A stretch of DNA of 64,000 bases from positions 62,849 through 126,848 of the forward strand of contig JAUIMC010000009.1 in assembly GCA_030433215.1 (NCBI GenBank), given 5' to 3'. The first letter of the stretch is position 1. Each line of letters opens with the position of its first letter. The notes beneath the pieces are model-generated. The model did not search any database and was not told where the DNA came from. It saw nothing but the letters and a program-made list of their open reading frames with translations. Below, piece by piece: positions 22,163 to 54,753 of this stretch. The stretch comes from Alphaproteobacteria bacterium. GTDB taxonomy: Bacteria > Pseudomonadota > Alphaproteobacteria > Caulobacterales > Parvularculaceae. The position numbers were made by a program, and so were the translations under genes.

Positions 22163-22198
22163 GGTGATCTTTCTTGTTTGCCATCATGCGCCGGCTGA

Positions 22199-34812: not shown

Positions 34813-34910
34813 GAAAGGCCGGCCCTTGTGGCGCAAGTCTGGGGTTCTCTCACGGCAATGAACTGCACAGGGCGAGGACGGACAAACGAAGCTTGGGAAT
34901 ATCTGGAGAG

Positions 34911-36196: not shown

Positions 36197-36387
36197 GGCG
36201 TTTCCTTGTTTGCCGATTTTGGGCGCGACGGATCCCGCCTCGCGAGAGTTTTGCAGGCCGTGCGCGCCGTCGCAAGACTTTCTGCGGATAAAGCAGTCAG
36301 CATAGGAACCATTCTGGAGGCGCAGGCCGATCATGCGCCGCGCACACGAAACGAAGTCTCTTCCATCAGCAGCGACGGAGGGCCGGC

Positions 36388-38410: not shown

Positions 38411-38412
38411 CC

Positions 38413-38730: not shown

Positions 38731-40274
38731 CTCGGCTCCCGGGAAAGGTCGCGTCGCAGGGCGTCGCCTCCGGAACGCTGCGGCGCGACGCTGTGGCCGC
38801 GCGGAGCGCAGGCAGGCCTGCTGACAGCGTGGCAGGCGCCGTTATCGAAGCGGCATGGCAGTTGCGCGCGCTGCAAGCCGCCGCGACTAGTCTGGGTTCG
38901 GACATTCTCGAATTTCAACTCGCCCTGCTTGAGGATGACGGGCTTGTCCTCGAAATGGTCCAGAAGGGCGCCGCGCATGGCGATGCCGCGCGCGCCATCG
39001 CCGAGGTTCTGGAAGAGCAGATCGCATCCTATCGCGCTGCGGCGGATGCGCGGTTTGCGGCGCGCGCGGCCGACCTTGAGGATCTCAAAAGCCGTCTTCT
39101 CGGCGCGCTGAAAGGCGCGGCGGCGCCGGCAAGGGCGCTCCCTGCGGGCACGATCCTCATTGCAGAAGAGATGACGCCGAGCCGCTTTCTTGAGCTCGAC
39201 CGCGCGAAAATCGCCGGAATCGTTGATCAGAAGGGCAGCGAGACGAGCCATGTCGCCTTGCTGGCGCGCGCGGAAGGCGTGCCTATGCTGGTCGCCGCCG
39301 GGCCTGTCGCGGCGGAATGGGAATCGCGTCCCGCCCTGCTCGATGCGGCGCACGGGGAGCTTGTCCTCGATCCCGATGCGGCGCTCATCCGCGATCGCGC
39401 CGGTCAGGCTTCTGCACAGGATGTTCCGTCATCGGAAGGCGAAGGACCGGCGGTTCTGTCCGATGGCGAAACGGTGCGGGTCAATCTCACCGTTAATGCG
39501 CTCGCGAGCCTAGACGAGGCACCGCCCGAATGGTTCGACGGCATCGGTCTCGTCAGGACCGAGCTCTTGATTACCGATGCGGAAGAAGTTCTGAACGCCG
39601 GGCGTCAGGCGAGCCTCTACCGGCCGCTGTTCGACTGGGCGCGGGAAAAGCCGGTGACCATCCGCCTGCTCGATGGCGGCGGCGACAAACAGGTGCCCGG
39701 CTATGCGCCGCCTCCGGGCGGCGGCGGTTTTCTCGGCGTGCGCGGCGCACGGCTTTTGATGCGGCGCGGCGATGTCCTGCGCGCGCAGCTCGCGGCGATC
39801 CTTGACGCCGCGGAAGGCCGGCCGGTGCGAATCATGGCGCCCATGATTACCTTGCCGGAGGAGATGCGGTTCTTCAGAACGGAGCTTGACCGCGCCATAG
39901 ACGCGTCCGGGGCGGACCGGGTGCAGGCGGCGCTGGGCATGATGGTGGAAACCCCCGCCGCGGCGCTCGACATCGATCGTTTCGATGCGGATTTCTTCGC
40001 TCTCGGCACGAATGATCTCGCGCAATATGTCCTGGCCGCCTCGCGCGACAGCGAGGCTTTGCCGCTTGGCGGGGAAATCCCGCCGGCGGTGCTTGAGCTT
40101 GTTCGGCGGGTCGTCGAACATGGCAGGAATAAAGGGCTTGCGGTGTCCGTTTGCGGCGATGTCGCGGCGTCTGAGGAAAGCCTTGGGCGGTTTCTCGCCT
40201 GCGGGGTGCGCTCTTTCAGCATCCCTTCGCGGTTTGCGCCCCGCTTCAAGCAGTATATCAGGACAGGGCTGTGA
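38727..40274 (+). CDS. ptsI: PTS Enzyme I (PEP-protein phosphotransferase)
   Basis: GSETSHVALLARA (phospho-His), GIGLVRTE, RLLDGGGDK, LGVRGARL, GMMVETP, GTNDLAQY, VCGD. Confidence 0.9.
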   Translation: MTRLPGKVASQGVASGTLRRDAVAARSAGRPADSVAGAVIEAAWQLRALQAAATSLGSDILEFQLALLEDDGLVLEMVQKGAAHGDAARAIAEVLEEQIASYRAAADARFAARAADLEDLKSRLLGALKGAAAPARALPAGTILIAEEMTPSRFLELDRAKIAGIVDQKGSETSHVALLARAEGVPMLVAAGPVAAEWESRPALLDAAHGELVLDPDAALIRDRAGQASAQDVPSSEGEGPAVLSDGETVRVNLTVNALASLDEAPPEWFDGIGLVRTELLITDAEEVLNAGRQASLYRPLFDWAREKPVTIRLLDGGGDKQVPGYAPPPGGGGFLGVRGARLLMRRGDVLRAQLAAILDAAEGRPVRIMAPMITLPEEMRFFRTELDRAIDASGADRVQAALGMMVETPAAALDIDRFDADFFALGTNDLAQYVLAASRDSEALPLGGEIPPAVLELVRRVVEHGRNKGLAVSVCGDVAASEESLGRFLACGVRSFSIPSRFAPRFKQYIRTGL

Positions 40275-40884: not shown

Positions 40885-41400
40885 GTGGCGAGTGAAGGTC
40901 CTGCCGGGAGCAGCGGGGCGGCGCTTTCGATTGAAGACCGCCTGCGCGCCCTCGAAGACGAACGCGAAATCCGTGAACTGATTATCCGCTATGCGCAGCA
41001 TCTCGACGCCCGCGACCATAAGGGGTATGCGGAACTTTTCGCCAGAGACGGGCGCTGGTCCGGCCGCATGGGCGACGCCGTCGGTCCTGAAGCGATTGAG
41101 AAAATGCTGGTCGAGGGCCTGGGGCCGACGCCGGAAGGTTTTCGCAACACCAAGAACTTTCATCTGATGAGCAATATCCTCATCGAGATCGACGGCGACA
41201 AGGCGAAAGCCGAATCGCGCCTGGTCTATTTCGCCCGCACGAAAGACGCGCGTCCCGGTCCCATGCTGGCTGGGCGCTATTTCGACGAGTTCGTGCGTGA
41301 AGACGGGCGGTGGCGCTTCAAGTTCAGACAGGTGCTCGGGGAAATCCCAACGCGCGAAGAAGCGCCGGTGCGCACGGCGGAGGAGGACGGACATGAGTGA
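40885..41400 (+). CDS. SnoaL_4/NTF2-like protein (short type, cytoplasmic)
   Basis: RLRALEDEREIRELIIRYAQHLD, NFHLMSN, GRYFDEFVREDGRWRF. Confidence 0.85.
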   Translation: MASEGPAGSSGAALSIEDRLRALEDEREIRELIIRYAQHLDARDHKGYAELFARDGRWSGRMGDAVGPEAIEKMLVEGLGPTPEGFRNTKNFHLMSNILIEIDGDKAKAESRLVYFARTKDARPGPMLAGRYFDEFVREDGRWRFKFRQVLGEIPTREEAPVRTAEEDGHE

Positions 41401-42049
41401 TCAGCGCCGCAAAGAGTTGCAGGAGCGGCTCGCCCGCCTGCAGGACGAAGCGCAAAGGCGGGAGGATTATCTCGCGATCATCCGCTGTCAGCGCGCCTAT
41501 GGCTTTTACATCGACAAGGGCTATTGGCGCGAGGCGTCCAATCTCTTCACGCAAGACGCCACCTATGAGCAGGGCGTCGACGGCGTTTACGAAGGGCGCG
41601 AGCGCATCCACGAATTGATCGTAAAGTTAAGCGGCGGCAATCCGGGGCCGGGCCTGCCTTTCGGCCAGCTTAACGAACATTTCCAGTTGCAGCCGGTGAT
41701 CACGATTGCGCAAGACGGCGCCAGCGCGCAAGGCCGCTGGCATGCGCTCTCCATGACCGGGCAATATGGCGAACACGCCGAATGGGGCGAGGGCGTTTAC
41801 GAAAACCGCTATCGCAAGGAAGACGGCGTCTGGAAAATTTCCGCCCTGCGGTTCTATCCCAATTTTGTCGCGCCCTATGAAGGCGGCTGGGCGTCGCTGA
41901 AACCCGTCGAGGGCGACTGGCGCAGTCCTGAGCTTGCGGACTTTCCGTCCGACAGGCCGCCGAGCGAAACCTACAAACCTTATCCCGACATCTTCACGCC
42001 GCCCTTTCATTACGTGCATCCGGTCACTGGCGAGGAGGTGAAGTCATGA
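41393..42049 (+). CDS. Long-type SnoaL_4/NTF2 protein, subtype A (cytoplasmic)
   Basis: AGGAGG RBS; YGFYIDKG, NEHFQLQP, YENRY..EDGVWKI, FVAPYEGGW, PPFHYVHPVTG. Confidence 0.85.
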   Translation: MSDQRRKELQERLARLQDEAQRREDYLAIIRCQRAYGFYIDKGYWREASNLFTQDATYEQGVDGVYEGRERIHELIVKLSGGNPGPGLPFGQLNEHFQLQPVITIAQDGASAQGRWHALSMTGQYGEHAEWGEGVYENRYRKEDGVWKISALRFYPNFVAPYEGGWASLKPVEGDWRSPELADFPSDRPPSETYKPYPDIFTPPFHYVHPVTGEEVKS

Positions 42050-43380
42050 GCGGGGAAGCAACGCTCGACGTCCTCGAAGCGCATCTCGAAGCGGCGGAAT
42101 TACGCCTGGCGCGGCTCGCCTCCCATGAAGCGGTGGAGCGCCTGCAACGCAGCTACGGTTATTATGTGGACAAGGGCTTATGGTCCGCGGCGGCCGATCT
42201 GTTCGCCGAGGACGGAACCTGGGAATGGGGACAGAGCGGCGTTTACAAAGGGCGCGAGCGCATCCGCGCGGCGCTGGCCCTGCGCGGTCCCGAAGGTCTC
42301 GCCCAGGGCGAGCTCAACACGCACTTCACCTGCCAGCCCATCGTCACGGTCGCCGAAGACAACATGACGGCGAAGGCGCGCTGGCGCGCCGACATGCAGC
42401 TTTGCAAGAACGGCAAGGGAAGCTGGGCTGAAGGCACCTTCGAAAACATGTACGTCAATGATGACGGCGTCTGGAAGATCGCGAGTCTGCATTTCTATGT
42501 CACGGTGGAATGCGACTACGATCTCGGCTGGGTCGTGGGCGACATGCCCATGGAAGGCCCGAGCGAGGAGCTTCCCCCCGACGAGCCGCCGACGGAAGTC
42601 TACCAATCGCTGCCCGAGGTGTATCTGCCGGCCTATCACTATCCCAATCCGGTGACCGGCGCGCAGCCGAAAAAGCCTGTGCTCCCTGATCTTCCCGCCG
42701 GCGATGATCTCGGCGCCGACATTTCCGCGCTCTCTGAACGCATCGAACGGCTTGAGGATACGCGCGCCTGCGAAAAGCTTCAGCGCGCCTATGGCTATTA
42801 TGTCGACAAGGCGATGTGGGACGATGTGGCCGATCTCTTCGTTGACGAGTCTACGCTGGAGATCGGCGGGCGCGGCGTCTTTCTCGGCAAGAAGCGGGTG
42901 CTCGAATATATGGGCATCGGCCTTGGCCCCACGGGGCCCCAGCGCGAACAGATCATCAATCACCAGCAGTTTCAGGGCATCGTCAGTGTCGCCGAAGACG
43001 GCAAGACGGCGCGCGGGCGCTGGCGCGCCTTCGTCATCGGCGGCAGCTCATGGGCGCCGGTGAACTGGGGCGATTGCCTTTACGAGAACCATTACAGGAA
43101 AATCGACGGCGTCTGGGTGATGGACAAACTTCATGCGCCCTTCACCATGTACACGCTCTATTCGGAAGGCTGGCATAAAACGACGACGCCCAATACGCGG
43201 CCCGAAAGCTTTCCGCCGCCGCCGGATCTGCCGCCGACGGTCATCTATCTGACCTATCCGAATTATTATTGCGAACCTTTCCACTATCCCAACCCGGTGA
43301 CGGGCAAGGACGCGCCGCCTCCCAATCCTGCGGCCGGCGGCGTCGCGAACATGGCCGACTTCGCAGACGATGAGCGCTGA
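42046..43380 (+). CDS. Tandem long-type SnoaL_4/NTF2 protein, subtypes B+C fused (cytoplasmic)
   Basis: Two repeats, each with YGYYVDK...H...Q...EN.Y...DGVW... and a HYPNPVTG tail. Confidence 0.87.
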   Translation: MSGEATLDVLEAHLEAAELRLARLASHEAVERLQRSYGYYVDKGLWSAAADLFAEDGTWEWGQSGVYKGRERIRAALALRGPEGLAQGELNTHFTCQPIVTVAEDNMTAKARWRADMQLCKNGKGSWAEGTFENMYVNDDGVWKIASLHFYVTVECDYDLGWVVGDMPMEGPSEELPPDEPPTEVYQSLPEVYLPAYHYPNPVTGAQPKKPVLPDLPAGDDLGADISALSERIERLEDTRACEKLQRAYGYYVDKAMWDDVADLFVDESTLEIGGRGVFLGKKRVLEYMGIGLGPTGPQREQIINHQQFQGIVSVAEDGKTARGRWRAFVIGGSSWAPVNWGDCLYENHYRKIDGVWVMDKLHAPFTMYTLYSEGWHKTTTPNTRPESFPPPPDLPPTVIYLTYPNYYCEPFHYPNPVTGKDAPPPNPAAGGVANMADFADDER

Positions 43381-44761
43381 CGCCACCCCCGCGCTGTCGT
43401 CGAAAACCCCGCCCGACTGGGCGGGCCATTCCGGCAATGTGGATGCGCTGATCGACACGCCGCGGCTCAGCCGTTTGCAGATCCAGCTCTTCGCGATCTG
43501 CGCCTTCGTTCTTTTCTGCGAGGGCTACGATCTTCAGGCGCTGGCGCTCGCCGTGCCGGATATTTCGAGCGAGTTCGGCATCGCGGCGAGCGATTTCAGC
43601 ATTGCGCTTTCGGCCAGTCTCTTCGGCATGGCGATCGGCGGCGCGGGGTTCGCGCCCATGGGCGACCGGGTGGGCAGGAAGCCCATGCTGATCCTGGCGA
43701 TGCTTCTCACCGGCGGGTCGACGCTGGCGGCGCTGATTTATCCGTCGGCCTGGTGGATCGCCCTGTGCCGCCTCGTCACCGGCATTGGCCTCGGCATCAC
43801 CACCGTCAACACCGCCGCCATCATGGGCGATTACGCGCCGGCCAAATGGCGCTTTTTCATCATGACCTTGCTCAACTGCTTCGTGCCGGGCGGCGCCTTT
43901 ACGGCGGCGTTCATCGCACCCGGGGTGATCGAGGAGATTTCCTGGCGGGGCATCTTCATCCTGGGCGGGGTCGTTCCCATCGGCGCCGCTGTTGTGGTCT
44001 GGCTCCTGGCGCCGGAATCCCTGAAATGGCTGGTCGCGGCCAAGCCGGGCGACAAGCGCATTGCGCGCATCGCCGGCGCTATTGCGCCGGGTCTCGATCC
44101 GGCGCGGCTGTTCCTGAAGAAAGGCGAAACGCAGGAACGCATCTCGGTGATCGGGTTGTTGTCGCGCGCCCATGCGGTCCGCACCCTCGTCATCTGGCTT
44201 GCCACGGCCAGCGGCGCCTTTTGTCTTTATCTCATGGTGAGCTGGCTGCCGACGATCTTGCGCGAGGCGCAATGGAGCACGGCCGATGCGCTGTTCGCCG
44301 CCGCGGCGGTGCAGCTCGGCGGCATCATCGGCAGTCTGATCATCGCCTGGGCCATCGACCGGAGGTTTCTGCTGGCGGGGCTTGTCGGCGGTTATGGTTG
44401 TTCCGCGCTCGCCCTCATGGGCATCGGTCTGTTGCCGGAAAGCGTGCTCGGCTGGAAAGTTCTTCTTTTCCTCACGGGCGCGGGCATTTCCGGCATTCAA
44501 GGCATCTGGATCTCCATCGCCGTGGTTCTTTATCCGCTTGAGCTGCGCGCCACGAGCGCGGGCTGGGTCGCGGCCATGAGCCGGATCGGCGCCGTCTCCG
44601 CGCCCATGGTCGGGGGCGCCGCGCTCGCCGCCAATGTCGAAGCCAGAAGCCTGTTGCTTGCGCTGGTTATCCCAATCGGCGCGTCCGTACTCGCGATCAT
44701 TTTCGCGCGCCGCCATTTCACCCCGCCGCCGCCGGTCCAGGAAGAGGGAGCGAAACCATGA
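43370..44761 (+). CDS. MFS aromatic acid:H+ symporter (AAHS; PcaK/BenK-like)
   Basis: FCEGYDLQAL, GDRVGRKP, YPLELRATSAGW...SRIGA; 12 TM helices. Confidence 0.85.
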   Translation: MSADATPALSSKTPPDWAGHSGNVDALIDTPRLSRLQIQLFAICAFVLFCEGYDLQALALAVPDISSEFGIAASDFSIALSASLFGMAIGGAGFAPMGDRVGRKPMLILAMLLTGGSTLAALIYPSAWWIALCRLVTGIGLGITTVNTAAIMGDYAPAKWRFFIMTLLNCFVPGGAFTAAFIAPGVIEEISWRGIFILGGVVPIGAAVVVWLLAPESLKWLVAAKPGDKRIARIAGAIAPGLDPARLFLKKGETQERISVIGLLSRAHAVRTLVIWLATASGAFCLYLMVSWLPTILREAQWSTADALFAAAAVQLGGIIGSLIIAWAIDRRFLLAGLVGGYGCSALALMGIGLLPESVLGWKVLLFLTGAGISGIQGIWISIAVVLYPLELRATSAGWVAAMSRIGAVSAPMVGGAALAANVEARSLLLALVIPIGASVLAIIFARRHFTPPPPVQEEGAKP

Positions 44762-45324
44762 CCGAAGCCGAACTCGAAAAACTCGCCGCCGATGTGCGCT
44801 ATCTCAAAGACCGGGCCGACATTCTCGACTGCATGAACCGCTATACGCGCGGCGCTGACCGGCTCGACATGGAATTGATGCTGAGCGCTTATCATGAGGA
44901 CGCCACCGACGATCGCGGCGCCTTTACGGGCGGGCCGCGCGAACGGGCGAAATGGCTGTTCAAGTTCCTGTCGAGCCTCGATCACGCCACCCATCACATC
45001 ACGAATTTCACCATCGATATCGACGGCGATATCGCCCATTGCGAAAGCTATGTGATTACGACGCTGATCCCCAAGGACTCGAAAGAAGCGACGCTCGGCA
45101 CGGCGCGCTATATCGACCGCATGGAGCGCCGCAACGGCGAATGGCGCATCGCTCATCGCGAGGCGGTGATGGATTTCCATATCACAGTGCCGACGTCGGA
45201 AATGCATCCGAATGTCATGACGGGCGCGCGCGACAAGACCGACCGGTCCTATGCGCGCCCGCTTACCCTGTCGCCGGAAGGCGAGGCGCGTATGCGCGCC
45301 GGCGTCAACACGCCGCGCGAGTAA
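44758..45324 (+). CDS. SnoaL_4/NTF2-like protein (short type, cytoplasmic)
   Basis: LKDRADILDCMNRYTRGADRLD, THHITN, RYIDRMERRNGEWRI. Confidence 0.85.
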   Translation: MTEAELEKLAADVRYLKDRADILDCMNRYTRGADRLDMELMLSAYHEDATDDRGAFTGGPRERAKWLFKFLSSLDHATHHITNFTIDIDGDIAHCESYVITTLIPKDSKEATLGTARYIDRMERRNGEWRIAHREAVMDFHITVPTSEMHPNVMTGARDKTDRSYARPLTLSPEGEARMRAGVNTPRE

Positions 45325-45339
45325 GAGGAGGAACGGCTC

Positions 45340-46221
45340 ATGCAGGTCAATGCAACAACGGCGAGCCTGGAGCGGGCGGCGCCGCGCTCGAAAAGGATCG
45401 AAGGCCTCGAGCCTTCTCGCCGGTCAAGCCTTGAACTCGGCGCCGCGCGGATCGAACGGGTGCGCGGGCTCGGCCGCCTCTATGAAGGCGCCGATGCTGA
45501 GTGCCGGCTTCTGTTTCAGACGGCCGGCGCCGCGGCGCTGACCTCGGACAGGGAGGCGGAGGCGTTTGACCTCGAGGCGGGTCACTGGGTGATCCAGCCC
45601 TTCTCCATGCTGAACATCGAACGCGGCCCCGGGTGCGAGCAATATGCGGTCGCATTCCCGGCCGGGATGCTCTCGCGCACGCTCATGGCCCATCTGCAAG
45701 GCGTTGCCGTTGCGCCTTTGCCCATCGGCGGCGCTGCGCAATTATGTCTGGAGCTCGGACGGTCCTGTCTTTCGCAGAACGAGCCGGTGAGCGCCGCCGT
45801 CGCCGAGACGCTGGGCGAGTCGCTGATTGAACTCGCCAAGCTCGCCATCATCGAACAGTCGGGCGTCAAGCGCGGCGAGACCATGCGCGAGACCGCGCGG
45901 GCGCGCATTCAGGGCTTCATTCACCGCAATTTGTCGGACCCCGATCTCACCATCGACCGGATCGCCAAGCGGATGCAGTGCACGAAACGCTATCTGCACA
46001 AGGTTTTCAGCAAGGAAGGCGAGACGCTGAACCAGTATATCTGGGCCAAGCGCCTCGATCTGTGCCGCGCGCGGCTGTCGCGCCCGGACCTTTCCGACAA
46101 GTCGATTACGGAAATCGCGTTTTCCTGCGGCTTCAGCAACGCTGCGCATTTCAGCCGCAGTTTCAGGGCCCGCTTTGGCGAGGCGCCGCGCGTCTATCGC
46201 CGCGCGGCCCTCGATAGCTAA
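45340..46221 (+). CDS. AraC family regulator (FeaR-like)
   Basis: NLSDPDLTIDRIAKRMQCTKRYLHKVF...SITEIAFSCGFSNAAHFSRSFRARFG. Confidence 0.9.
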   Translation: MQVNATTASLERAAPRSKRIEGLEPSRRSSLELGAARIERVRGLGRLYEGADAECRLLFQTAGAAALTSDREAEAFDLEAGHWVIQPFSMLNIERGPGCEQYAVAFPAGMLSRTLMAHLQGVAVAPLPIGGAAQLCLELGRSCLSQNEPVSAAVAETLGESLIELAKLAIIEQSGVKRGETMRETARARIQGFIHRNLSDPDLTIDRIAKRMQCTKRYLHKVFSKEGETLNQYIWAKRLDLCRARLSRPDLSDKSITEIAFSCGFSNAAHFSRSFRARFGEAPRVYRRAALDS

Positions 46222-46230
46222 CCCGTCCGC

Positions 46231-48057
46231 TTAGCGCGGCTGCATGCCGTAAGGCAGCTCAGAGGCGAAAGCCTCAATGCGTTCGATCTTGCCGCCGGAG
46301 AAGCGGAACAGCCCAACCACCTGCTGCGTGCGCGGATAGGGCAGGCTGCCTTTATAGGCCTCGCCCGACGCGTCGGTGAAGTCCTGTTCGCTCGCGGGGA
46401 AATCCTCAAACATCGACATGGCGACAAGGCCGCGCTGTTCGTCGACGGCGATCACGCGCGCATCGCGCACCGCCTTGACCGATTGCAGGCGCTTGCCCGT
46501 CAGCGGCGCGGCGCAGGGAGAAAGCTCCTGGCCGTTGACCGCCCACATGCAATCATCCGCGAAGTCGTCGGGCGCGGTTCCGTTCTGGGCGTTGATCGCT
46601 GCGTAAACGCGGTCGACAGCGGCCAGCATGTCCATGCGCGAGGTGCGTTCGCCTCGAGAGAGATTGGAAAATTCCGGCGCGGATTCCGGCGCCGCGAAGG
46701 GCGGTCCGTATTCCTTGCGCCGGATCACCGCTTCGACGCCGCCGATTTTGTCGCCGTCGGCGCTGACCGTGACGGCGGCCCAGGAGGGCTGGCCGTGGGC
46801 TTCGATGCGCCCGATCCACACGGCGCGGCCGAGTTCTTCGTCGGCGATGATCAAGGGATCGCCGCCGACGGCGGTGGTCGAGCCCCAGATGCCTTCGCCG
46901 ACTTGCAGGCCGACGCTGTTTTCCTCGTAACCAACCTCGTCGGCCCAGGGCAGGGTCTTCCATTCGCCGCGGTTCGGATAGGCGTTCATCACCCGCTCGG
47001 TAAGACGCGTCAGGCAGCGCGTATTGCACGCGTCCGGCGAGGAGACCGAGATCGGCGGCTTCGCCGCATCGCCGGCCCAGGGGTTGTGCATGAAATAGGG
47101 CACATAGGTGAACACCGCTTCGATCCGGCTGATCTTTGCATCCTTGATGCGGAACGCTTCGAGCAGCGTGATCGAGTTCGGCCATTTCAGCGCGGTTTTC
47201 ATCTCGCGCCCGTCGGTGAGGTTGTAGCGGTCGAACTCATTGGCGTGATCGAAGAAGCCGGTGGCGACGACGACGCCGCGCTCTTCGTCGATGAGCGGAT
47301 AGCGGCGTTCGCGAATGCGCTTGTTGATGCGGTAGATGCCGAGCTTGAACTGCGCTTCGCAGCCATCGACCAGGGTAAAGCCCTCGACGCCGTCGCGGGC
47401 GCGGGTCGTGGTGCTGATGCCGTTTTCAAGGCGGCCGCAATCCTCGTCGAAGGGCGCGAAGACCTGGCCGTCATTCAGTTCGACCGTGTCGAAATAGCTG
47501 TCGGCGATGGCGCGCATGCGCGCGCGCGGACGGCGCTCTTCCGGCGGCAGAACCTTGTTGAAGTCCGGGTCGTGCGTCATGTTTTCGGTGTCGCCGAACG
47601 GCGCGGGCAGCGCGGTCCGTCTGTGAACGACGCTTTCGGCCTCGTCGATCCGGCCGTCGGTAACGTGAATGCGCACCGCGAAGATCGCCGGCTCGCCATT
47701 CTCGATGACCGAACCGAACCAGGCCGCATTCTGGGTTTGCGTATCCGCGACTTCGAGGCCGACCGCGTCGACTTTCTCGACGGTGCCCCACAGGCCCTCG
47801 CCGAGCGGGATGACGACGTTGTTTTCGGTAAACTGGAAATCGTCGGCGGCGGGGACGGCCGAGGGCGCGCCAGCGCGCAAGGCGTCCATATATTGACCGA
47901 GCATGCCGAGGAGGCAGGCGCGGTCGCAGTCGAGTTCATAGACGGCGCTGTTCGCGCCTGGCGCCTGCGCGGCCGCGGGGGTGAGGGCAGGGGCGGCGGC
48001 GAAGATCGCGGCCCCCGACAAGGCGAGTTTCAGCTTATTCGTTTTGCTCTTGTGCAT
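46231..48057 (-). CDS. Secreted CxxxCL-family protein: fusion of types alpha and beta
   Basis: Signal peptide after ATG 48057. The N-half (CDRACL...FFDH...HNPW) is very similar to 33112-34086; the C-half (CNTRCL...LPWAD...LPYGMQP) is similar to 32180-33112. Confidence 0.85.
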   Translation of the reverse strand: MHKSKTNKLKLALSGAAIFAAAPALTPAAAQAPGANSAVYELDCDRACLLGMLGQYMDALRAGAPSAVPAADDFQFTENNVVIPLGEGLWGTVEKVDAVGLEVADTQTQNAAWFGSVIENGEPAIFAVRIHVTDGRIDEAESVVHRRTALPAPFGDTENMTHDPDFNKVLPPEERRPRARMRAIADSYFDTVELNDGQVFAPFDEDCGRLENGISTTTRARDGVEGFTLVDGCEAQFKLGIYRINKRIRERRYPLIDEERGVVVATGFFDHANEFDRYNLTDGREMKTALKWPNSITLLEAFRIKDAKISRIEAVFTYVPYFMHNPWAGDAAKPPISVSSPDACNTRCLTRLTERVMNAYPNRGEWKTLPWADEVGYEENSVGLQVGEGIWGSTTAVGGDPLIIADEELGRAVWIGRIEAHGQPSWAAVTVSADGDKIGGVEAVIRRKEYGPPFAAPESAPEFSNLSRGERTSRMDMLAAVDRVYAAINAQNGTAPDDFADDCMWAVNGQELSPCAAPLTGKRLQSVKAVRDARVIAVDEQRGLVAMSMFEDFPASEQDFTDASGEAYKGSLPYPRTQQVVGLFRFSGGKIERIEAFASELPYGMQPR

Positions 48058-50278
48058 TGTTGTCTTCTTCTCCCTGTATGCCGCCTTTTGCAGCGTCGTC
48101 GTGCCAGTCTTCATTGGCGCGCGCGATGAGATAGGCGTGAATGGCTTGGGCTTCGTCTTCGGTCAGGATGTTGTCGAAGCTGGCCATGCCCTTTTCCGTG
48201 CGCGTGCCGCGCAAGACGATGTCGAGGAACTCGTCATGGGTTTCCTTCGACATATAGCGAAGGTCCTTCATGCCGCCGCGCGCGTTCTTGCCGTGACAGG
48301 TGGAACAGGTTTCGGCGAAAAGCCGCGCGCCTTCCTCGACGACGGCTTCCGGCGCCCTTAGCATCGGCGGGCGCGGCAGGTCGGAGCGCGCCGGCATGGG
48401 CGGCAGTTCGGCGTCGCCGCCGAGCTTGAACACGAGAAGCCGCGCCGTCGAATAGTGAAAGCCGCCGGGGATCTTGTTCAGCGCCGACACGGGCGAGCCG
48501 CCCCAGCCGACATTAACCGCCACATATTGTTCGCCGTCGACCATATAGGTGATGGGGCCGGCGATGGCGACATTCTGCACCGGCATCTTCCAGACAAGAT
48601 CGCCATTGTCGGCGCGATAGGCGGCGAAGTCTTTTTCGACCGAGCCCTGGAAGAGGAGGTTGCCGGCGGTGGCGAGGACGCCGCCGGAGCCCGGATAAGG
48701 ATGCATGACGCGGAACGCCTCTTCCTGTTTCACCGGGTCCCAGGCGAGAAGATAGCCTTTTTCCTTTTCATCGGCTTCGGCCTGAAGCTCGCGCCGCTTG
48801 TCCATATTATGGATGTAGTCGAAGCCGGAATTGACGCGCCAATGGCGCGGGTTGAATTCCTCGGGCGGCAGCTTGGCGTAGACGAACCATTGCTCCTGCG
48901 CCGAAAGATAGATGAGCCCGGTGTCCGGGTGGTAAGCCATGGGGTGCCATGTATGCGCGGCGAGCGCGCTCGGCGTCATCAGCTTGGGCTCTTGAGTAAG
49001 CCGCGCGGTCGGCGTTTCGACCGGACGGCCCGTCTCCATGTCGATGTGGGTCGCCCAGGTGTTCGGCACATAGGTTTCCGCACTGATCAATTCGCCGGTG
49101 GCGCGGTCGATCACATAGAAGAAACCATTCTTCGGCGCCTGCATGATGACTTCGCGGGTTTCGCCTTCGATCTCGAGATCGGCGATCATCATCGGCTGGG
49201 TGCAGGTGAAGTCCCATTCCTCGCCGGGCGCCATTTGATAGTGCCAGCGATATTCGCCGCTGTCGGCGTCGACCGCCACGATGGAACAGAGGAAGAGGTT
49301 GTCGCCGCCGCCGGGGGAGCGGAATTCCTGCACATGCGGCGAGCCGTTGCCGGTTCCGATATAGACGAGATTGAGGTCGGGATCGTAGACGATCGAATCC
49401 CAGGCGGTGCCGCCGCCGCCCAGCGTCCACCATTCGCCGTTCCAGGTTTCGGCGGCCATCTCCATGACCGAGTCGGAGGCTTCGCCGTCTGGGCCGTCGG
49501 CGGGATTGCCCGGCACGATGTAGAACTTCCAGAGTTTCTCGCCGGTCTCCGCGTCGAAAGCCGCCACGAAGCCGCGCACGCCGTAATCGGCGCCGCCATT
49601 GCCGATCACCACCTTGCCGTCGAAGACGCGCGTCGGTCCGGTGATGGAATAGGGTTCGGTGTTCTCGAAGGTCTTGGTGGTCCAGATTTCTTCGCCGGTC
49701 TTGGCGTCGATGGCGATCAGCCGTCCGTCGAGGGCGCCGATATAGAGCTTGCCTTCCCATGCGGAAATGCCGCGCGTCGAAGGTCCGCAGCAGGCGAGCC
49801 GCGCCCATTCGCGCGAGACTTCCGGATCGTAGGTCCACAGCTTTTCGCCGGTCGCGGCGTCGTAGGCCGTGACGACATTGAAGATCGAGGCGTTGTAGAG
49901 AACGCCGTCGATCACCAGGGGCGTCGCCTGCACGCCGCGCAGCGTGTCGAGATCGTCATACCAGGCGAGACCGAGCTGATCGGCGTTTTCATGGTTAATC
50001 TCGTCGAGCGGGCTGAAGCGTTGTTCCTTCCAGCCGCGCCCGTAAGACATCCAGTCGCCGACATTTTCCGGGGCGTCGATATTGCGCATGGTTTCGCTTG
50101 TGACGTCCGCAGGCCGCGCCGCCGCGGAGGACGATGATCCTTCGGGGTCGGGCTCGGAGGCGCCCGGCGCGGACGCATCGTTTCCGCAGGCTGCGAGCAG
50201 GCAAAGGAAAGCCAGCGCGATGGCGCGGCGGCTTTCGGCGGCGAAATCGGAAAAAGAAAACAGGGTGAATTTCATCAT
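48035..50278 (-). CDS. Lipoprotein quinohemoprotein (PQQ + heme c) alcohol dehydrogenase, type II
   Basis: Lipobox LLAAC; WMSYGR, QRFSPL, ACCG vicinal cysteines, GTGNGSP, WDFTCTQ, APKNGFFY, CSTCH heme site. Confidence 0.92.
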   Translation of the reverse strand: MMKFTLFSFSDFAAESRRAIALAFLCLLAACGNDASAPGASEPDPEGSSSSAAARPADVTSETMRNIDAPENVGDWMSYGRGWKEQRFSPLDEINHENADQLGLAWYDDLDTLRGVQATPLVIDGVLYNASIFNVVTAYDAATGEKLWTYDPEVSREWARLACCGPSTRGISAWEGKLYIGALDGRLIAIDAKTGEEIWTTKTFENTEPYSITGPTRVFDGKVVIGNGGADYGVRGFVAAFDAETGEKLWKFYIVPGNPADGPDGEASDSVMEMAAETWNGEWWTLGGGGTAWDSIVYDPDLNLVYIGTGNGSPHVQEFRSPGGGDNLFLCSIVAVDADSGEYRWHYQMAPGEEWDFTCTQPMMIADLEIEGETREVIMQAPKNGFFYVIDRATGELISAETYVPNTWATHIDMETGRPVETPTARLTQEPKLMTPSALAAHTWHPMAYHPDTGLIYLSAQEQWFVYAKLPPEEFNPRHWRVNSGFDYIHNMDKRRELQAEADEKEKGYLLAWDPVKQEEAFRVMHPYPGSGGVLATAGNLLFQGSVEKDFAAYRADNGDLVWKMPVQNVAIAGPITYMVDGEQYVAVNVGWGGSPVSALNKIPGGFHYSTARLLVFKLGGDAELPPMPARSDLPRPPMLRAPEAVVEEGARLFAETCSTCHGKNARGGMKDLRYMSKETHDEFLDIVLRGTRTEKGMASFDNILTEDEAQAIHAYLIARANEDWHDDAAKGGIQGEEDNNAQEQNE

Positions 50279-50420
50279 GGGTCTTGTGCTGGGTTGAGGA
50301 AGAATTTGTGCAGTGCACCAATGCGGCGCCGGCAAGCTTGCCAAGCAAGGCGGTCTCATTTCATAATCTAATAATCTAATAAAAAAGCTGAGTGGGCGTA
50401 GACCGACTTGGAGGAGAGGA

Positions 50421-51383
50421 TTGCCGGAACTGGAAAAAGGCTGGGGTGAGTTGCCCAACCTGTTGGTCGATTTAAGCGAAGTAGAACAGGGAAAACGCGC
50501 GCTCTCGTGGGACAGCGCCGTGCGCACCGCTTTTCCGAGTCTTTCTGTGGAGCTGTCGGACCCCACGGAATCCTGCGGCACCATCAACTGCACCAAAATG
50601 GGCGCCGGCGAATTCTTCGAAATCGATTCGGCCCCGGTCGACGTCACCCATCACGCCGGCGCGGCGAAAGAAAAAAGCCCGCCGCATCTGTCTTTGATGA
50701 TCCAGTCCAAAGGCTCCATCTGCGTCAGCCAGGCCGGCCAGAGCTCCATCCTGCGCGAAGGCGATCTGTGCGTTATCGACGAAGCGCGCAGCTTCCGGAT
50801 GATCGGCGAAGGCAGCAGCAAGATCCTGTTTCTGCGCATGTCCCGCGCGGCGGCGCTCAGCCGCTATCCCACGCTTGAAAAACCCTTTGCGAGCGTCTTT
50901 CCGGGCGAAGAGCCGGGCACCCGGCTTCTGGCCGACACGCTTTTGAGTTTCGCCGCCGCGGCGGGGAGCCTCAGGGAGTTGCAGCGCAGCGCCATGATGA
51001 ATGCGGTCATACAGATGCTCGGCATGGCGGAGCCGTTTTCGCGTCTGTCGCCGGCGCCTGACTGGCGCGTCCGGCGCGCGCTCGATTACATCGAACTCAA
51101 CCTTTCGGTCCCGGGTCTCACCGCCGAAGCCGTGGCGCAGGACCAGCGGATCAGCCGCCGGCGCCTGGATCAGCTGATGCAGGAAGCGCTCGGCCATTCG
51201 ATCGCCAGCCATTTGTGGAGCCGCCGGCTTGAACAGGCCGCGGCGGATCTGCGCGACGGGCATCGCGCCGACCAGTCGATCGCCCAGATCGCTTTCGCCA
51301 ACGGGTTTGAAGACGCGGCGCATTTCACGCGCGCTTTCAAAAGGCGGTTTTCCCTCACCCCCGGGCAGTGGCGTCTTAACTGA
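50421..51383 (+). CDS. AraC family regulator (FeaR-like)
   Basis: LREGDLCVIDEARSF; RALDYIELNLSVPGLT...SIAQIAFANGFEDAAHFTRAFKRRF; divergent from the PQQ dehydrogenase. Confidence 0.88.
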   Translation: MPELEKGWGELPNLLVDLSEVEQGKRALSWDSAVRTAFPSLSVELSDPTESCGTINCTKMGAGEFFEIDSAPVDVTHHAGAAKEKSPPHLSLMIQSKGSICVSQAGQSSILREGDLCVIDEARSFRMIGEGSSKILFLRMSRAAALSRYPTLEKPFASVFPGEEPGTRLLADTLLSFAAAAGSLRELQRSAMMNAVIQMLGMAEPFSRLSPAPDWRVRRALDYIELNLSVPGLTAEAVAQDQRISRRRLDQLMQEALGHSIASHLWSRRLEQAAADLRDGHRADQSIAQIAFANGFEDAAHFTRAFKRRFSLTPGQWRLN

Positions 51384-51522
51384 GACAGCCCGCCTGATCA
51401 CCACCGGCGCCTGCACGGTCAAGCCACGATTCCAGATAGGGCTAGCGGTGGGATTCTCCCCGGTGGTTAAGTCGTTTATCAAGTAGCTAAACCGGGACAA
51501 CCGGTCCACAGGGAGGATATCG

Positions 51523-52506
51523 ATGCTGCAAGCGAACGCAGCGGGCATTCGCGCCGTCCGGCTTTGCGCGGCGATAACCGGCGCCGTCCTGCTTGCCGCC
51601 TGCGCGCCATCTTCAAGCGATGAAGCCGCAGCGCCGCAGGACATCCTGATCGACGGCGCCCGCGTGTTCCCTGAAAGCGTGACCTCTGACAGCGACGGCG
51701 CCGTTTATGCCGGGAGCCTTGGCGGCGTGATCTACCGGGCCGAACCCGGCGCCGGCGTCGCCGAGCCCTGGATCGAACCGACGGAAGAGAACGGCCTCCT
51801 GGCGCTTTTCGGCGTGCTCGCCGATGAAACGCACGGCGTCTTATGGGTCTGTTCCAACCCGAATCCCTTCGCGGGCGGCGACGGGCCGAAGGTCTCGAGC
51901 CTTCTCGCCTTCGATCTTGAAAGCGGCGAGTTTGAGGCGCGCTATCCCTTCCCGGAAGGCCCGGCGGCCTGCAATGACATCGCCGTCGCCTCCAATGACG
52001 TCGTCTTTGTCACCGAAACAGCGGGCGGGCGGATCTTCCGCCTTGCGCCGGGCGCCACCGATCTCGCCCTTTTCGCCGAAGGCGAGAATCTTATCGGCGT
52101 CGACGGCATCGCATTCTCCGACGACGGAACAATGTACATCAACAATGTGCGCGCGCATCTCGTGCAGCGGGTCGAACGCGACGCCAATGGCGCCTATGCG
52201 GGCCTCACTGATCTGGCGCTATCCGAACCGGTGAACGGGCCTGACGGGTTGCGCCCGGTCGGCGGCGACAGCTTCCTTCAGGCGGAAGGCGCCGGTGGGC
52301 GCGTTGCGCTGATCGAAGTCGACGGCGACAGCGCAACAGTAACGCCGCTGCGCACAGGCCTTGCCTCTTCGCCCGGCGTTACGCGCGCCGGCGATGTCGG
52401 CTACGCCACCGAAGGCAAGATCCAATATCTGATTGACCCTGAATTTCAGGGTCAGGACCCCGGAGAATTTTACCTCCGGGCTTTCACCCTACCGGAGGGA
52501 CTATGA
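51523..52506 (+). CDS. SMP-30/gluconolactonase-like six-bladed propeller lipoprotein
   Basis: Lipobox LLAAC; FPES, ACNDIA, GVDGIA and GPDGL at the metal-ligand positions. Confidence 0.75.
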   Translation: MLQANAAGIRAVRLCAAITGAVLLAACAPSSSDEAAAPQDILIDGARVFPESVTSDSDGAVYAGSLGGVIYRAEPGAGVAEPWIEPTEENGLLALFGVLADETHGVLWVCSNPNPFAGGDGPKVSSLLAFDLESGEFEARYPFPEGPAACNDIAVASNDVVFVTETAGGRIFRLAPGATDLALFAEGENLIGVDGIAFSDDGTMYINNVRAHLVQRVERDANGAYAGLTDLALSEPVNGPDGLRPVGGDSFLQAEGAGGRVALIEVDGDSATVTPLRTGLASSPGVTRAGDVGYATEGKIQYLIDPEFQGQDPGEFYLRAFTLPEGL

Positions 52507-53216
52507 AGCGCATCATGCCCATGGCCGTGCTTTTGGCCGTCATGACCGCGTCCGCGCCGGCGCCGGTTTTGGCGCAAGGCGATCTGGACGCCGAAATCGA
52601 AACGCTGACCGAGCGCGTCGAGAAACTCGAAGGCATTCGCGCCGTCAAGAAACTCCAGCGCGCCTTCGGCTTTTATGTGGACCGCGGGCTCTGGGGCGAG
52701 GCGGCTGATCTCTTTGCCGCGGACGGCGCGATCGAGATCGGTCTCGACGGCGTTTATGTGGGCAATGAGCGCATCCGTGAATATCTGAAACGCCTGCATG
52801 GCGGCCAGGAAGGGCTGATCTACGGCCAGCTCAATGAATGGGTGACTTTGCAGCCGGCAATTTCCGTCGCCGAGGACGGCATGAGCGCAACCGCGCGCTG
52901 GCGCGATCTTGGCATGCTCGGTCAGTATAAGGAGCATGCCGAATGGCGCGACGGCATTTACGAGAACAGCTACGTCAAGGAAGACGGGGTCTGGAAGATC
53001 AAGTCGCTCCATCTCTACATCAATTTCGTGGCGCCCTATGAAAAGGGCTGGGCGCGGCTGAAGCCCGGCGAGGGGCTGACGCGCAGCGAGGCGTCGAAGA
53101 AGTTCAGGCCAGACCGCGGCCCCACGGTGACTTACGCGCCGTTTCCGGCCGTGCAGATTCCTCCCTTTCAGGCGCCCCATCCGGTCACGGGCGAAACCGT
53201 CGAAGGAGATCTGTGA
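52503..53216 (+). CDS. Secreted long-type SnoaL_4/NTF2 protein, subtype A
   Basis: Sec signal; FGFYVDRG, NEWVTLQP, FVAPYEKGW, PPFQAPHPVTG. Confidence 0.85.
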   Translation: MKRIMPMAVLLAVMTASAPAPVLAQGDLDAEIETLTERVEKLEGIRAVKKLQRAFGFYVDRGLWGEAADLFAADGAIEIGLDGVYVGNERIREYLKRLHGGQEGLIYGQLNEWVTLQPAISVAEDGMSATARWRDLGMLGQYKEHAEWRDGIYENSYVKEDGVWKIKSLHLYINFVAPYEKGWARLKPGEGLTRSEASKKFRPDRGPTVTYAPFPAVQIPPFQAPHPVTGETVEGDL

Positions 53217-53953
53217 TGCGTTCAGGCAAAACATTCATCCGGATTTGCTGCGCCGCTGCGGCGGGGGTCATGCCGGTGCTGGCGGCGGCGCCCGTCATGG
53301 CGCAATCGCTGGAAGCGCGCGTCGCCGATTATCGCGAGCGGGTCTCCCGGCTTGAAGATCAGGCGGCGATAGAAAACCTCCAGGCCACCTACGGCTATTA
53401 TTTCGACAAGGGCCTGTGGACAGAAGTTGCGAACCTCTTCGCCGACGATGCGAGTTTCGAATACGGCCAGCGCGGCGTTTATATCGGCAAGGACCGCATT
53501 CGCCGCGCGCTCTTGCTCTTCGGTCCTGAAGGGCTCGGCGAGGGCTATCTCAACAATCACACGCAATTGCAGAACGTCACCATCGTCGCCGATGACGGTC
53601 AGTCCGCCACGGCGCGCTGGCAGGGACCGGTGCAGCTCTCCGAACCCGGCGCCAGCGGCATCTGGGGCCTTGGCGTCTATGAGAACGAATATGTCAAAGA
53701 CGGCGGCGTCTGGAAGATCGCCAAGCTGCATTTCTACGTGACCGGCTGGACCGATTACGACAAGGGCTGGATGAAGTCGCTCATTCCCATGGAGGGCCAG
53801 AGCGCGGTGTACCCGCCCGATCAGCCGCCGACGGAAGTCTATCGCGCCTTGCCCGCGGCGTATCTGCCGCCCTTCAGTTTCAATCATCCGGTGACGGGAA
53901 AATCCCTGAAAGATCTGCCGATGGCCGGCGACGACATCGTGGGGCGCGAATGA
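53213..53953 (+). CDS. Secreted long-type SnoaL_4/NTF2 protein, subtype B
   Basis: Sec signal; YGYYFDKG, GPEGL, NNHTQLQ, DYDKGW...PMEG, PPTEVY, NHPVTG. Confidence 0.85.
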   Translation: MMRSGKTFIRICCAAAAGVMPVLAAAPVMAQSLEARVADYRERVSRLEDQAAIENLQATYGYYFDKGLWTEVANLFADDASFEYGQRGVYIGKDRIRRALLLFGPEGLGEGYLNNHTQLQNVTIVADDGQSATARWQGPVQLSEPGASGIWGLGVYENEYVKDGGVWKIAKLHFYVTGWTDYDKGWMKSLIPMEGQSAVYPPDQPPTEVYRALPAAYLPPFSFNHPVTGKSLKDLPMAGDDIVGRE

Positions 53954-54753
53954 TCATGAAAAAAATCTTGAAAACCATATCGCTCTCCGCCTTTTCCGCC
54001 GCGCTTCTGGCGGCCGCGCCTGCCTCGGCGCAAACGGCGGCGGAAAAACTCGACGCCCTCGACAAGCGCATCACGCGGCTTGAGGATATGAACCAGATCG
54101 AGCGGGTGCAGCGCACCTACGGTTATTTCGTCGACAAAAGTCAGTGGACGCCGCTTTCGAAACTCTTCTCGGAAGATGCGACGCTGGAAATCGGCGGCAA
54201 GGGCATCTTCCTCGGCCAGGACCGCGTGCTCGAATATATGCAAACCGCGTTCGGACCGGACGGCACCAAGCCGGGCGTCCTCGCCAACCACATGCAGTTC
54301 CAGCCCATCGTCGACATCTCGCCGGACGGCAAGACCGGCTGGGCGCGCAGCCGCGCCTATGTGATGAGCAATGGCGGCTGGGGTCTGCCGCTTTACGAAA
54401 ACGCCTATGAAAAAGGCGAAGACGGCAAATGGCGGATCTCCCGCCTCACCGGCCCCTTCACCATGTATGCGGGCTGGGAAGGCTGGGGCAAGACGGCGCT
54501 CAACAACACCTGGCCGGACAAGTTCGATCCGCCGCCCGATCTGCCGCCTTCCGTCATCTATCTGACCTATCCGGCCTATTACATCGTGCCCTTCCACTAT
54601 CCCAACCCGGTGACCGGCGAGGCGTTGATTCCCGACCGGGACGAAGTCGGCGCCTATCATCGCCCGCCCGGCACGCCGGAGCAGGAAAAGGCGCTCGCGA
54701 CCGGCCAGATGGAAGACGGCACGCAACCGATTGCAGAGCCGCCGAAGGACTGA
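53950..54753 (+). CDS. Secreted long-type SnoaL_4/NTF2 protein, subtype C
   Basis: Sec signal; YGYFVDK, TLEIGGKG, RVLEYM, NHMQFQ, PFTMY, PPPDLPPSVIYLTYP, PFHYPNPVTG. Confidence 0.85.
   Translation: MIMKKILKTISLSAFSAALLAAAPASAQTAAEKLDALDKRITRLEDMNQIERVQRTYGYFVDKSQWTPLSKLFSEDATLEIGGKGIFLGQDRVLEYMQTAFGPDGTKPGVLANHMQFQPIVDISPDGKTGWARSRAYVMSNGGWGLPLYENAYEKGEDGKWRISRLTGPFTMYAGWEGWGKTALNNTWPDKFDPPPDLPPSVIYLTYPAYYIVPFHYPNPVTGEALIPDRDEVGAYHRPPGTPEQEKALATGQMEDGTQPIAEPPKD

Follow-up and report, generated by a model that had tools for sequence, protein, structure and literature searches.

We describe here a family of three diverged NTF2-type proteins, A, B, and C, that is encoded twice within a 64,000-nucleotide stretch of DNA (the window) from an alphaproteobacterium of the family Parvularculaceae (NCBI GenBank assembly GCA_030433215.1, contig JAUIMC010000009.1, positions 62,849 to 126,848 of the forward strand), once as a cytoplasmic set and once as an exported set. 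A, B, and C are likely to be paralogues of the LdpA type that combine in a 1:1:1 pseudo-threefold assembly, in which C would be the catalytic subunit and phenolic compounds the substrates. To our knowledge, all characterised trimeric NTF2 enzymes (LdpA, LinA, BaiE, and scytalone dehydratase) are homotrimers.

LdpA is a cofactor-free gamma-formaldehyde lyase that converts the lignin beta-1 dimer erythro-1,2-diguaiacylpropane-1,3-diol (erythro-DGPD) to lignostilbene, and its activity requires Tyr35, Asp40, His97, Glu143, and Tyr147 (PMC9942872). His97 and Asp40 constitute an acid/base dyad that is essential by mutagenesis, and Tyr35 and Tyr147 form the oxyanion hole that receives the phenolate of the substrate (PMC9942872). 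The other characterised homologue, the phenylcoumaran gamma-formaldehyde lyase PcfL, acts on a beta-5 dimer (PMC11323797). Both enzymes make stilbenes from lignin dimers, and these stilbenes are the substrates of lignostilbene-type dioxygenases (PMC9942872, PMC11323797).

Results

The two sets of long NTF2 domains

The cytoplasmic set consists of A1 (41393-42049, plus strand, 218 residues), a long A-type NTF2 subunit without a signal peptide, and a cytoplasmic B1-C1 fusion protein (42046-43380, plus strand, 444 residues). The B1 domain of the fusion is encoded by approximately 42046-42660 and the C1 domain by approximately 42661-43380, both on the plus strand; for identity comparisons, B1 was taken as residues 1-205 and C1 as residues 206-444. 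The periplasmic set consists of three separate plus-strand genes encoding A2 (52503-53216, 237 residues), B2 (53213-53953, 246 residues), and C2 (53950-54753, 267 residues), each with a Sec signal peptide. An earlier note on this DNA, made from the sequence alone, had listed these five open reading frames (ORFs) as long NTF2 domains, and all of them are present and of the SnoaL_4/NTF2 type. Every A, B, and C domain matches the Pfam family SnoaL_4 (PF13577, E 1e-20 to 1e-52), each of the six window domains scoring 73-97 bits against a cut-off of 24 and the B1-C1 protein scoring 176 bits in two stretches. No NCBIfam family was found above cut-off for A1, B1-C1, A2, B2, or C2.

Same-type identity between the two sets is 52% for A1-A2, 53% for B1-B2, and 52-53% for C1-C2, and cross-type identity among the A, B, and C domains of the window is 32-46%. 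Type-specific motifs can be read in the translations: NFVAPYE.GWA.LKP in A1 and A2; GPEGL, DYD.GW, PMEG, and PPTEVY in B1 and B2; and TLEIGG.G, RVLEYM, PFTMY, and PPPDLPP.VIYLTYP in C1 and C2. The pairing of A, B, and C across the two sets, which had been proposed from such motifs, is far beyond chance as judged by the phylogeny of the domains. A2 has NEWVTLQ where A1 has NEHFQLQ, and the differing column aligns with the catalytic His97 of NaLdpA, whose numbering, transferred by alignment, is used for all active-site positions.

Both sets have the same gene order, as the earlier note had held, and both are translationally coupled, with overlapping start and stop codons at their junctions. The overlap is ATGA between A1 and B1-C1, between an SGL-like gene and A2, and between B2 and C2, and the codons at the A2/B2 junction overlap as GTGATG; a GGAGGAGG ribosome-binding site precedes the ATG of A1. 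The N-termini of A2, B2, and C2 comprise a basic end, a hydrophobic core, and A-x-A followed by Q, which identifies them, by eye, as Sec-type signal peptides. No such signal is found on A1 or B1-C1, in keeping with the proposed deployment of the family in two compartments. For the secreted set this compartment is most likely the periplasm, because both of the neighbouring pyrroloquinoline quinone (PQQ) dehydrogenases have lipoprotein signals ending in LAAC.

We also considered whether the division between A1 and B1-C1 might be a frameshift or an assembly error in a fused gene. This was rejected on the basis of 26 orthologous B-C fusions with a separate A (for example, at locus L031) and of the clean ATGA junction with its ribosome-binding site.

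Phylogeny of the A, B, and C domains

A careful maximum-likelihood tree was built from 64 domains, including LdpA and four LdpA-like single genes from the genome of the window. The A-B-C clade is split from LdpA and these four genes with support of 100/100. Within it, A (94/80), B (100/93), and C (100/96) are each monophyletic, which bears out the pairing of the motifs, and the internal structures of the three clades match; a quick tree of 148 domains gave the same picture. All six domains of the window fall in the clade, A, B, or C, that their gene positions predict. A1 groups at 100/100 with domain 1 of P0002, a fused A-B-C relative that is 79% identical to B1-C1 and whose domain 1 is 73% identical to A1, and A1, B1, and C1 fall among fused A-B-C or B-C proteins. 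A2, B2, and C2 lie in a 100/100 clade of split exported trios, of which those of Erythrobacter westpacificensis are the nearest. The matching A, B, and C clades of the tree indicate that the triplication is old and that the three paralogues have diverged together since. The earlier note had described the two sets as duplicated. Two versions are indeed present in one genome, but, as judged from the tree, they did not arise by recent duplication within it; they represent two old sub-lineages with orthologues elsewhere.

A stand-alone paralogue outside the window (contig C30:5784-6455, minus strand, 218 residues) is sister to the C clade (98/89) and carries Glu58, Gly143, His97, and Tyr170, the signature of the A-B-C clade. 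An LdpA-like gene (C30:6558-7382) is its back-to-back neighbour. One-domain relatives of this kind, 42-44% identical to C2, occur in five genomes of the genus, and the C30 paralogue may resemble the homomeric ancestor of the family. A C2 search of 151 sampled genomes of the host's family matched 8, all of them in the genus of the window, and returned no close C2 orthologue. The four LdpA-like single genes are likewise outside the window, on contigs C14, C24, C30, and C31, and the C31 gene, which groups with NaLdpA, may be a true LdpA orthologue.

Gene fusion and synteny in other genomes

A protein database was searched with B1-C1, and the best 120 relatives were classified domain by domain. 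The majority (88/120) are single-chain A-B-C proteins of 600-760 residues; a crude hydrophobicity criterion assigns an N-terminal signal peptide to 75 of these and none to 13. B-C fusions without a signal peptide account for 26 of the 120, with 62-89% identity to B1-C1. The other 6 are divergent three-domain proteins; among these, P0062 and P0077 are rare exceptions with the order A-C-B by tree placement, and the domain types of P0091 are unclear. An A-B fusion with a separate C is found at loci L007/L083, L014, L037, L039, and L063. The architectures observed are therefore A+B+C, AB+C, A+BC, and ABC, nearly always in one order. Fission and fusion in all states with a single order is a classic signature of components that work as one physical unit, and it argues that A, B, and C do so.

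Orthologues of C2 comprise more than 100 protein-database clusters at 73-86% identity. When genome contigs were scanned with one genome per species, 511 stretches were found to encode relatives, and the best 80 loci were taken for synteny, with 70 loci having enough upstream DNA and 73 loci having enough downstream room to be scored. A, B, and C lie in order and on one strand in 69 of the 70 testable loci, and the sole exception resembles an ORF-calling artefact. A survey of A-B-C synteny and fusions, which the earlier note had named as a check on its proposal, thus recovers one order and fusions in every combination. The hosts of these loci are Erythrobacteraceae of the genera Erythrobacter, Croceibacterium, Altererythrobacter, Aurantiacibacter, Alteraurantiacibacter, and Caenibius, as well as Novosphingobium, Sphingobium, Steroidobacteraceae, and other Gammaproteobacteria. 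At L025, L031, and L036, a cytoplasmic set of A1 and a B1-C1 fusion adjoins the periplasmic trio, as in the window. The idea that the split trio is unique, first suggested by the C2 search of the 151 genomes, was dropped when the orthologue clusters and the 80 loci were later found.

Conservation of active-site residues

The catalytic residues of LdpA are retained most completely in C. In the fused proteins, C has Tyr35, His97, and Tyr147 in 94/94 and Asp40 in 92/94, and in the split orthologues each of the four residues is present in 79/79. Position 97 of A in the fused proteins is His in 53, Arg in 39, and Trp in 2, and that of B is Tyr in 58, His in 20, and Glu in 10, so that His97 is missing from 41 of 94 A domains and from 74 of 94 B domains; the other catalytic positions of A and B are variable. 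In the split exported proteins, A has Phe35 in 72/72 and Trp97 in 71/72 aligned orthologues, and B has His97 in 77/77 and Asp40 in 76/76. By this comparison, C has the only universally intact site, and A and B are both degenerate in many lineages.

The His97-Asp40 dyad is present in A1, B1, C1, B2, and C2 and absent from A2, which has Trp97. A1 keeps Tyr35, Asp40, His97, and Tyr147; B1 keeps His97 and has Phe at 147; B2 keeps Asp40, His97, and Tyr147; and C1 and C2 both have the full set of Tyr35, Asp40, His97, and Tyr147. C2 is the probable catalytic subunit of the exported trio, and A2, with Phe35 and Trp97 replacing Tyr and His, is probably non-catalytic. The Trp in place of the catalytic His in the secreted A had been pointed out before and is both real and fixed across orthologues; the accompanying suggestion that one subunit might be non-catalytic gains support from the fixed Phe35/Trp97 pair of A2-type subunits.

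A different picture is seen for the acid of LdpA. The six window domains have Gly, Ala, or Arg at position 143, where almost every family member has Gly, and Tyr165 and Gln170 are also replaced, position 165 of C being Ala or Gly and position 170 Tyr. NaLdpA and the four LdpA-like single genes included in the tree all keep Glu143 (5/5 compared). Position 58 is an invariant Glu in all three domain types, and none of the LdpA-like sequences compared has it. Both window sets fit the signature of the family, which consists of the order A-B-C, Glu58, Gly143, and the full catalytic set in C. An assignment of the family as an LdpA isoenzyme or stereo-variant was rejected because Glu143, Tyr165, and Gln170 are missing: the base dyad and the phenolate tyrosines are shared with LdpA, but the leaving-group acid is not.

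Structure prediction and fold comparison

In a sequence search of the PDB, the best matches were the LdpA structures 8ABT, 8ABU, 8ABV, and 8ABW (E 1e-20 to 5e-28), aligned over the whole length, and the HMMER alignment to 8abt/8abv reaches as far as HP.VTG, the terminal motif of the C-terminal arm. The AlphaFold2 model of P0002 (667 residues, 94-sequence alignment) has a mean predicted local distance difference test score (pLDDT) of 94.7 and a predicted template modelling score (pTM) of 0.94, and its arms, which are without secondary structure, share the high confidence. For the B1-C1 protein of the window, pLDDT was 92.8 and pTM 0.92. Values such as those of P0002 are not expected for three independent beads; as modelled, the chain is one rigid body.

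The B arm has pLDDT values of 89-98 in the B1-C1 model. The corresponding values for the C arm are 79, 71, 92, 79, 94, 87, and 79, compared with 92-97 in the full A-B-C model. This drop in the absence of A fits a C arm that needs A, with the arms clasping in the cycle A to B to C to A.

A Foldseek search with both models returned LdpA (8abt, 8abu) as the best solved match, with template modelling (TM) scores of 0.72-0.76 normalised to LdpA and alignments of 215-225 columns of the 232-244 LdpA residues, the arm included; the B1-C1 model alone gave TM scores of 0.72-0.75. Scytalone dehydratase, LinA, and BaiE are weaker sequence and fold matches than LdpA, and Lsd19 (4RZM) and MonBI-MonBII (9KW6) match the models weakly (TM 0.32-0.36). 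No three-domain NTF2 structure was found in the PDB. The central proposal of the earlier note, that three specialised subunits belong to one hetero-assembly, thus receives support from the fusions, the synteny, the congruent clades, and the pTM values of the AlphaFold2 models.

Genomic context of the two sets

The cytoplasmic operon is coupled throughout and comprises genes for a short SnoaL_4 protein, A1, B1-C1, a major facilitator superfamily (MFS) transporter, and a second short SnoaL_4 protein, with a gene for an AraC-family regulator following. The first short SnoaL_4 protein (40885-41400, plus strand, 171 residues; Pfam SnoaL_4 2e-28) is cytoplasmic, its gene overlaps A1 by 8 bp, and it is a possible fourth, 'D'-type partner. 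The MFS gene (43370-44761, plus strand; Pfam MFS_1 1e-43) is coupled on both sides by overlaps of 11 bp and 4 bp, and its product is the probable importer for the cytoplasmic set. The last gene of the operon (44758-45324, plus strand) encodes the second short SnoaL_4 protein, of 188 residues, and has a counterpart after the B1-C1 fusion gene at L025, L031, and L036. The AraC-family gene (45340-46221, plus strand) matches Pfam HTH_18 and HTH_AraC.

The periplasmic module begins with a DUF8021-like gene and a PQQ dehydrogenase gene on the minus strand and continues with genes for an AraC-family regulator, an SGL-like propeller, A2, B2, and C2. After C2 come a second PQQ dehydrogenase gene, an exported short SnoaL_4 gene, a gene for a second propeller, and an RPE65/lignostilbene-dioxygenase-like gene (58546-60018). 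The DUF8021-like gene (46231-48057, minus strand) encodes an exported protein of about 608 residues, counted from the ATG at 48057, with two similar halves. It has no match in the local Pfam copy; its relative at L007/L083 carries PF26061 (DUF8021), and genes of this type recur next to the PQQ dehydrogenase 1 gene and the A-B-C trio at L034, L035, L041, L056, and L083.

Both dehydrogenases are PQQ quinohemoprotein alcohol dehydrogenases. PQQ dehydrogenase 1 (48035-50278, minus strand, probable start at 50278; Pfam PQQ 9e-75) consists of a PQQ propeller and a C-terminal cytochrome c domain (Cytochrome_CBB3), with a lipoprotein signal that has the lipobox LLAAC. PQQ dehydrogenase 2 (54758-56896, plus strand; Pfam PQQ 5e-78 and cytochrome c) has its probable ATG 5 bp past the C2 stop codon and the lipobox LAAC. 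The longer ORF-finder starts of both genes are probably not used. Of the 73 loci that have space for one, 48 carry a PQQ quinohemoprotein gene after C.

The AraC-family gene of this module (50421-51383, plus strand) lies upstream of the periplasmic operon, a position that is kept in many loci. The propeller gene at the A2 junction (51523-52506, plus strand; Pfam SSL_N and SGL) encodes an exported SMP-30/strictosidine-synthase-like beta-propeller, and a gene of this type is directly 5' of A in 31/70 loci. The exported short SnoaL_4 protein (56943-57455, plus strand, 170 residues) is the periplasmic counterpart of the product of 40885-41400, with which it shares 32% identity. Its position after the PQQ gene is kept at L013, L024, L027, and L030, and a short SnoaL_4 gene is directly 5' of A at 8 other loci.

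Upstream in the same island are genes for a TonB-dependent receptor and two LigW-like amidohydrolases (decarboxylases), more SnoaL_4 genes, and a dhaKLM set. This context points to plant phenolic catabolism, probably of dimers that end as stilbenes. The PQQ enzymes could act ahead of the NTF2 step, by oxidising its substrate, or follow it and oxidise a product such as an aldehyde or formaldehyde.

Discussion

A model for the proposed A-B-C assembly

From the observed paralogy, gene order, fusions, synteny, and conserved residues, and from the confident models of single chains, we infer a physical 1:1:1 complex, the direction of its arms, a catalytic role for C, a phenolic class of substrate, and a coupling to PQQ enzymes. 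A, B, and C would be anciently diverged paralogues, each built of an N-terminal helix, a cone-shaped barrel, and a proline-rich C-terminal arm of 60-70 residues, that form a 1:1:1 pseudo-threefold ring, corresponding to the LdpA homotrimer but heteromeric. Each arm would probably clasp the next domain, A to B, B to C, and C to A. The cytoplasmic version would consist of two chains, A1 and the B1-C1 fusion, expressed in an operon with an MFS importer. In the periplasmic version, A2, B2, and C2 would be three separate chains that pass through Sec unfolded and come together in the periplasm. C would be catalytic, with a His97-Asp40 base dyad and a Tyr35/Tyr147 phenolate-binding pair that are kept throughout; B would retain the dyad in some lineages, both window copies among them; A would be degenerate; and A2, with its fixed Phe35 and Trp97, would be a pseudo-enzyme and act as a wall, either structural or for substrate binding.

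Such a complex would most likely act on a 4-hydroxyphenyl compound by acid/base catalysis without a cofactor, proceeding via a quinone methide to an elimination, a ring opening, or a dehydration. It would not be the reaction of LdpA itself, because Glu143-Tyr165-Gln170 is replaced by Gly143, the invariant Glu58 and, in C, Tyr170. In the periplasm, the complex and the lipoprotein PQQ quinohemoprotein dehydrogenases would act on compounds imported by the TonB-dependent receptor, probably phenolic dimers that are plant or lignin-derived.

Several points weigh against this model. As the C30 paralogue demonstrates, a member of the wider clade can occur without A and B, and the loss of the LdpA acid Glu143 makes the type of reaction uncertain, the candidate lyase activity of the earlier note included. 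The direction of the arms and the geometry of the ring are read from pTM and pLDDT patterns, and layer-by-layer trimerisation of fused chains is still conceivable. Covariation, analysed as mutual information with average product correction over 161 concatenated A-B-C sets (effective N 67), leans towards the arm/core order A to B to C to A for all three arms, but by small margins and with no significance test. The neighbourhoods of the fused relatives vary, containing short-chain dehydrogenases, esterases, tannase, and DUF3237 genes, and they also hold genes for PQQ or flavocytochrome dehydrogenases and MFS proteins.

The retention of the His-Asp dyad in five of the six window domains, the homotrimeric state of all characterised relatives (LdpA, LinA, BaiE, and scytalone dehydratase), and the existence of C30 as a stand-alone C-like paralogue would each fit a different arrangement, in which A, B, and C are three independent, co-transcribed homotrimeric isoenzymes, each with its own substrate or stereoisomer, like the LigD/L/N/O or LigE/F/P sets. 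Lignin pathways do often use stereospecific paralogue sets (PMC12997858). However, fixed-order fusions in every combination and 1:1:1 co-occurrence in 69/70 loci would be unexpected for independent enzymes, as would the tight conservation of A2-type subunits that have lost Tyr35 and His97, and the frequent absence of His97 from the A (41/94) and B (74/94) domains of fused proteins. The single chain, moreover, is predicted to be one rigid body (pTM 0.94), and we consider three separate isoenzymes quite unlikely. A hetero- or pseudotrimer that is not an enzyme at all, but a binder or carrier of hydrophobic phenolics for PQQ dehydrogenases, transporters, or dioxygenases, also seems unlikely. NTF2 folds often serve as binders, the A and B sites are degenerate, the Glu143 motif of LdpA is missing, and the tightly linked PQQ dehydrogenases could be the true catalysts; yet C keeps Tyr35, Asp40, His97, and Tyr147 across 94 fused and 79 split members, in the manner typical of catalytic residues, and the same four residues are essential in LdpA (PMC9942872).

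The A-B-C assembly could also be part of a larger unit, either joined by the short SnoaL_4 protein or docked on the PQQ quinohemoprotein or the SGL-like propeller, an arrangement that is compatible with the 1:1:1 model. Translational coupling links the short SnoaL_4 gene to A1, the start of A2 overlaps the SGL-like gene, and the short SnoaL_4 proteins form a cytoplasmic and exported pair with 32% identity, encoded 5' of A at 8 loci and after the PQQ gene at 4. We nevertheless regard such a unit as unlikely: many A-B-C loci lack the short SnoaL_4 gene, many lack the SGL-like gene, and many lack the PQQ gene, and no fusion of any of them to A-B-C was found among the 120 relatives.

Comparison with known NTF2 assemblies

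The A, B, and C domains are like LdpA and PcfL in their SnoaL_4/NTF2 barrel, long N-terminal helix, and extended C-terminal arm, in the His97-Asp40 dyad and the Tyr35/Tyr147 pair kept in C, and in their sphingomonad aromatic-catabolic contexts with adjoining lignostilbene-dioxygenase-like genes. LdpA also forms a threefold assembly held by arm exchange, as is predicted for the A-B-C family. Unlike the A-B-C family, with its three diverged paralogues and only C universally intact, LdpA is one gene product with three identical sites. LdpA has Glu143-Tyr165-Gln170, whereas the A-B-C family has Gly143 and the invariant Glu58, and it is the latter that has exported periplasmic versions, linked to PQQ rather than nicotinamide adenine dinucleotide (NAD)-dependent enzymes.

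Among more distant relatives, scytalone dehydratase, LinA, and BaiE are also trimeric cone-shaped NTF2 enzymes with a His-Asp dyad (plus a Tyr in BaiE), but they are short forms without the long clasping arm and have three equal sites and unrelated substrates. The polyether epoxide hydrolases Lsd19, with two fused domains, and MonBI-MonBII provide examples of paralogous NTF2 domains, fused or separate, that share labour in one assembly; these are two-domain short SnoaL-type dimers, however, with different chemistry and with both domains catalytic. The beta subunits of Rieske ring-hydroxylating dioxygenases form a structural, non-catalytic NTF2 ring, a role such as is proposed for A and often for B, but in the alpha3beta3 enzymes the beta3 ring consists of identical subunits on separate catalytic alpha subunits and is without a C-terminal clasping arm.

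A literature search for NTF2/SnoaL enzymes that are heterotrimeric, tandem, or built of three domains, and for NTF2 proteins associated with quinohemoproteins, returned no description of the A-B-C family, in agreement with the statement in the earlier note that no described example was known. A 2026 review of lignin-dimer pathways lists LdpA and PcfL only, and the database names of A-B-C proteins are confined to 'nuclear transport factor 2 family protein' or 'hypothetical'. Sequence comparison and modelling suggest as new the quaternary and domain organisation, the different second catalytic motif, and the periplasmic deployment; the LdpA-like fold and dyad are known. More tentatively, and with considerable doubt, we raise the possibility that gene triplication produced an obligate heterotrimer or pseudo-trimer, with a catalytic C, a variable B, and a dead A, whose exported form operates in an unrecognised periplasmic route for phenolic compounds or lignin dimers.

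If this were true, the exported form would break bonds without a cofactor, as one step of a periplasmic pathway for dimers and oligomers of plant phenolic or lignin origin, in which PQQ quinohemoprotein dehydrogenases replace the NAD-dependent dehydrogenases of the known cytoplasmic pathways. The link to PQQ enzymes, together with the TonB-dependent receptor and the exported decarboxylase-like proteins, points to phenolic-dimer processing in the periplasm, a route that is not part of current pathway maps. Among the trimeric NTF2 enzymes, the family would also be the first that is heteromeric or pseudo-trimeric, and it would be a clean natural case of the passage from a symmetric homomer to an obligate heteromer, with repeated gene fission and fusion. 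Screens for lignin-dimer enzymes that express single genes would probably obtain inactive or insoluble protein from this family, and the trio would need to be expressed jointly or as a natural fusion. Carriers of the exported A-B-C module include Erythrobacteraceae, Sphingomonadaceae, and Steroidobacteraceae that are common in the sea and in soil.

Additional features of the window

The island at 27-60 kb contains twelve SnoaL_4 domains in all. Further short SnoaL_4 genes are located at 34285-34812 (plus strand), 34893-35504 (plus strand), and 35762-36334 (minus strand), between exported DUF8021-like and dhaKLM genes. The dihydroxyacetone kinase set itself occupies 36388-40274, within the aromatic island, and encodes Dak1, DhaL, an EIIA-like DhaM, and an Enzyme I-like protein; a link between this set and C1 or C3 (one- or three-carbon) products of lyase reactions is conceivable. 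Finally, the G+C content falls to 50-56% at approximately 6000-26000, compared with 60-67% elsewhere in the window, and this drop suggests foreign DNA.

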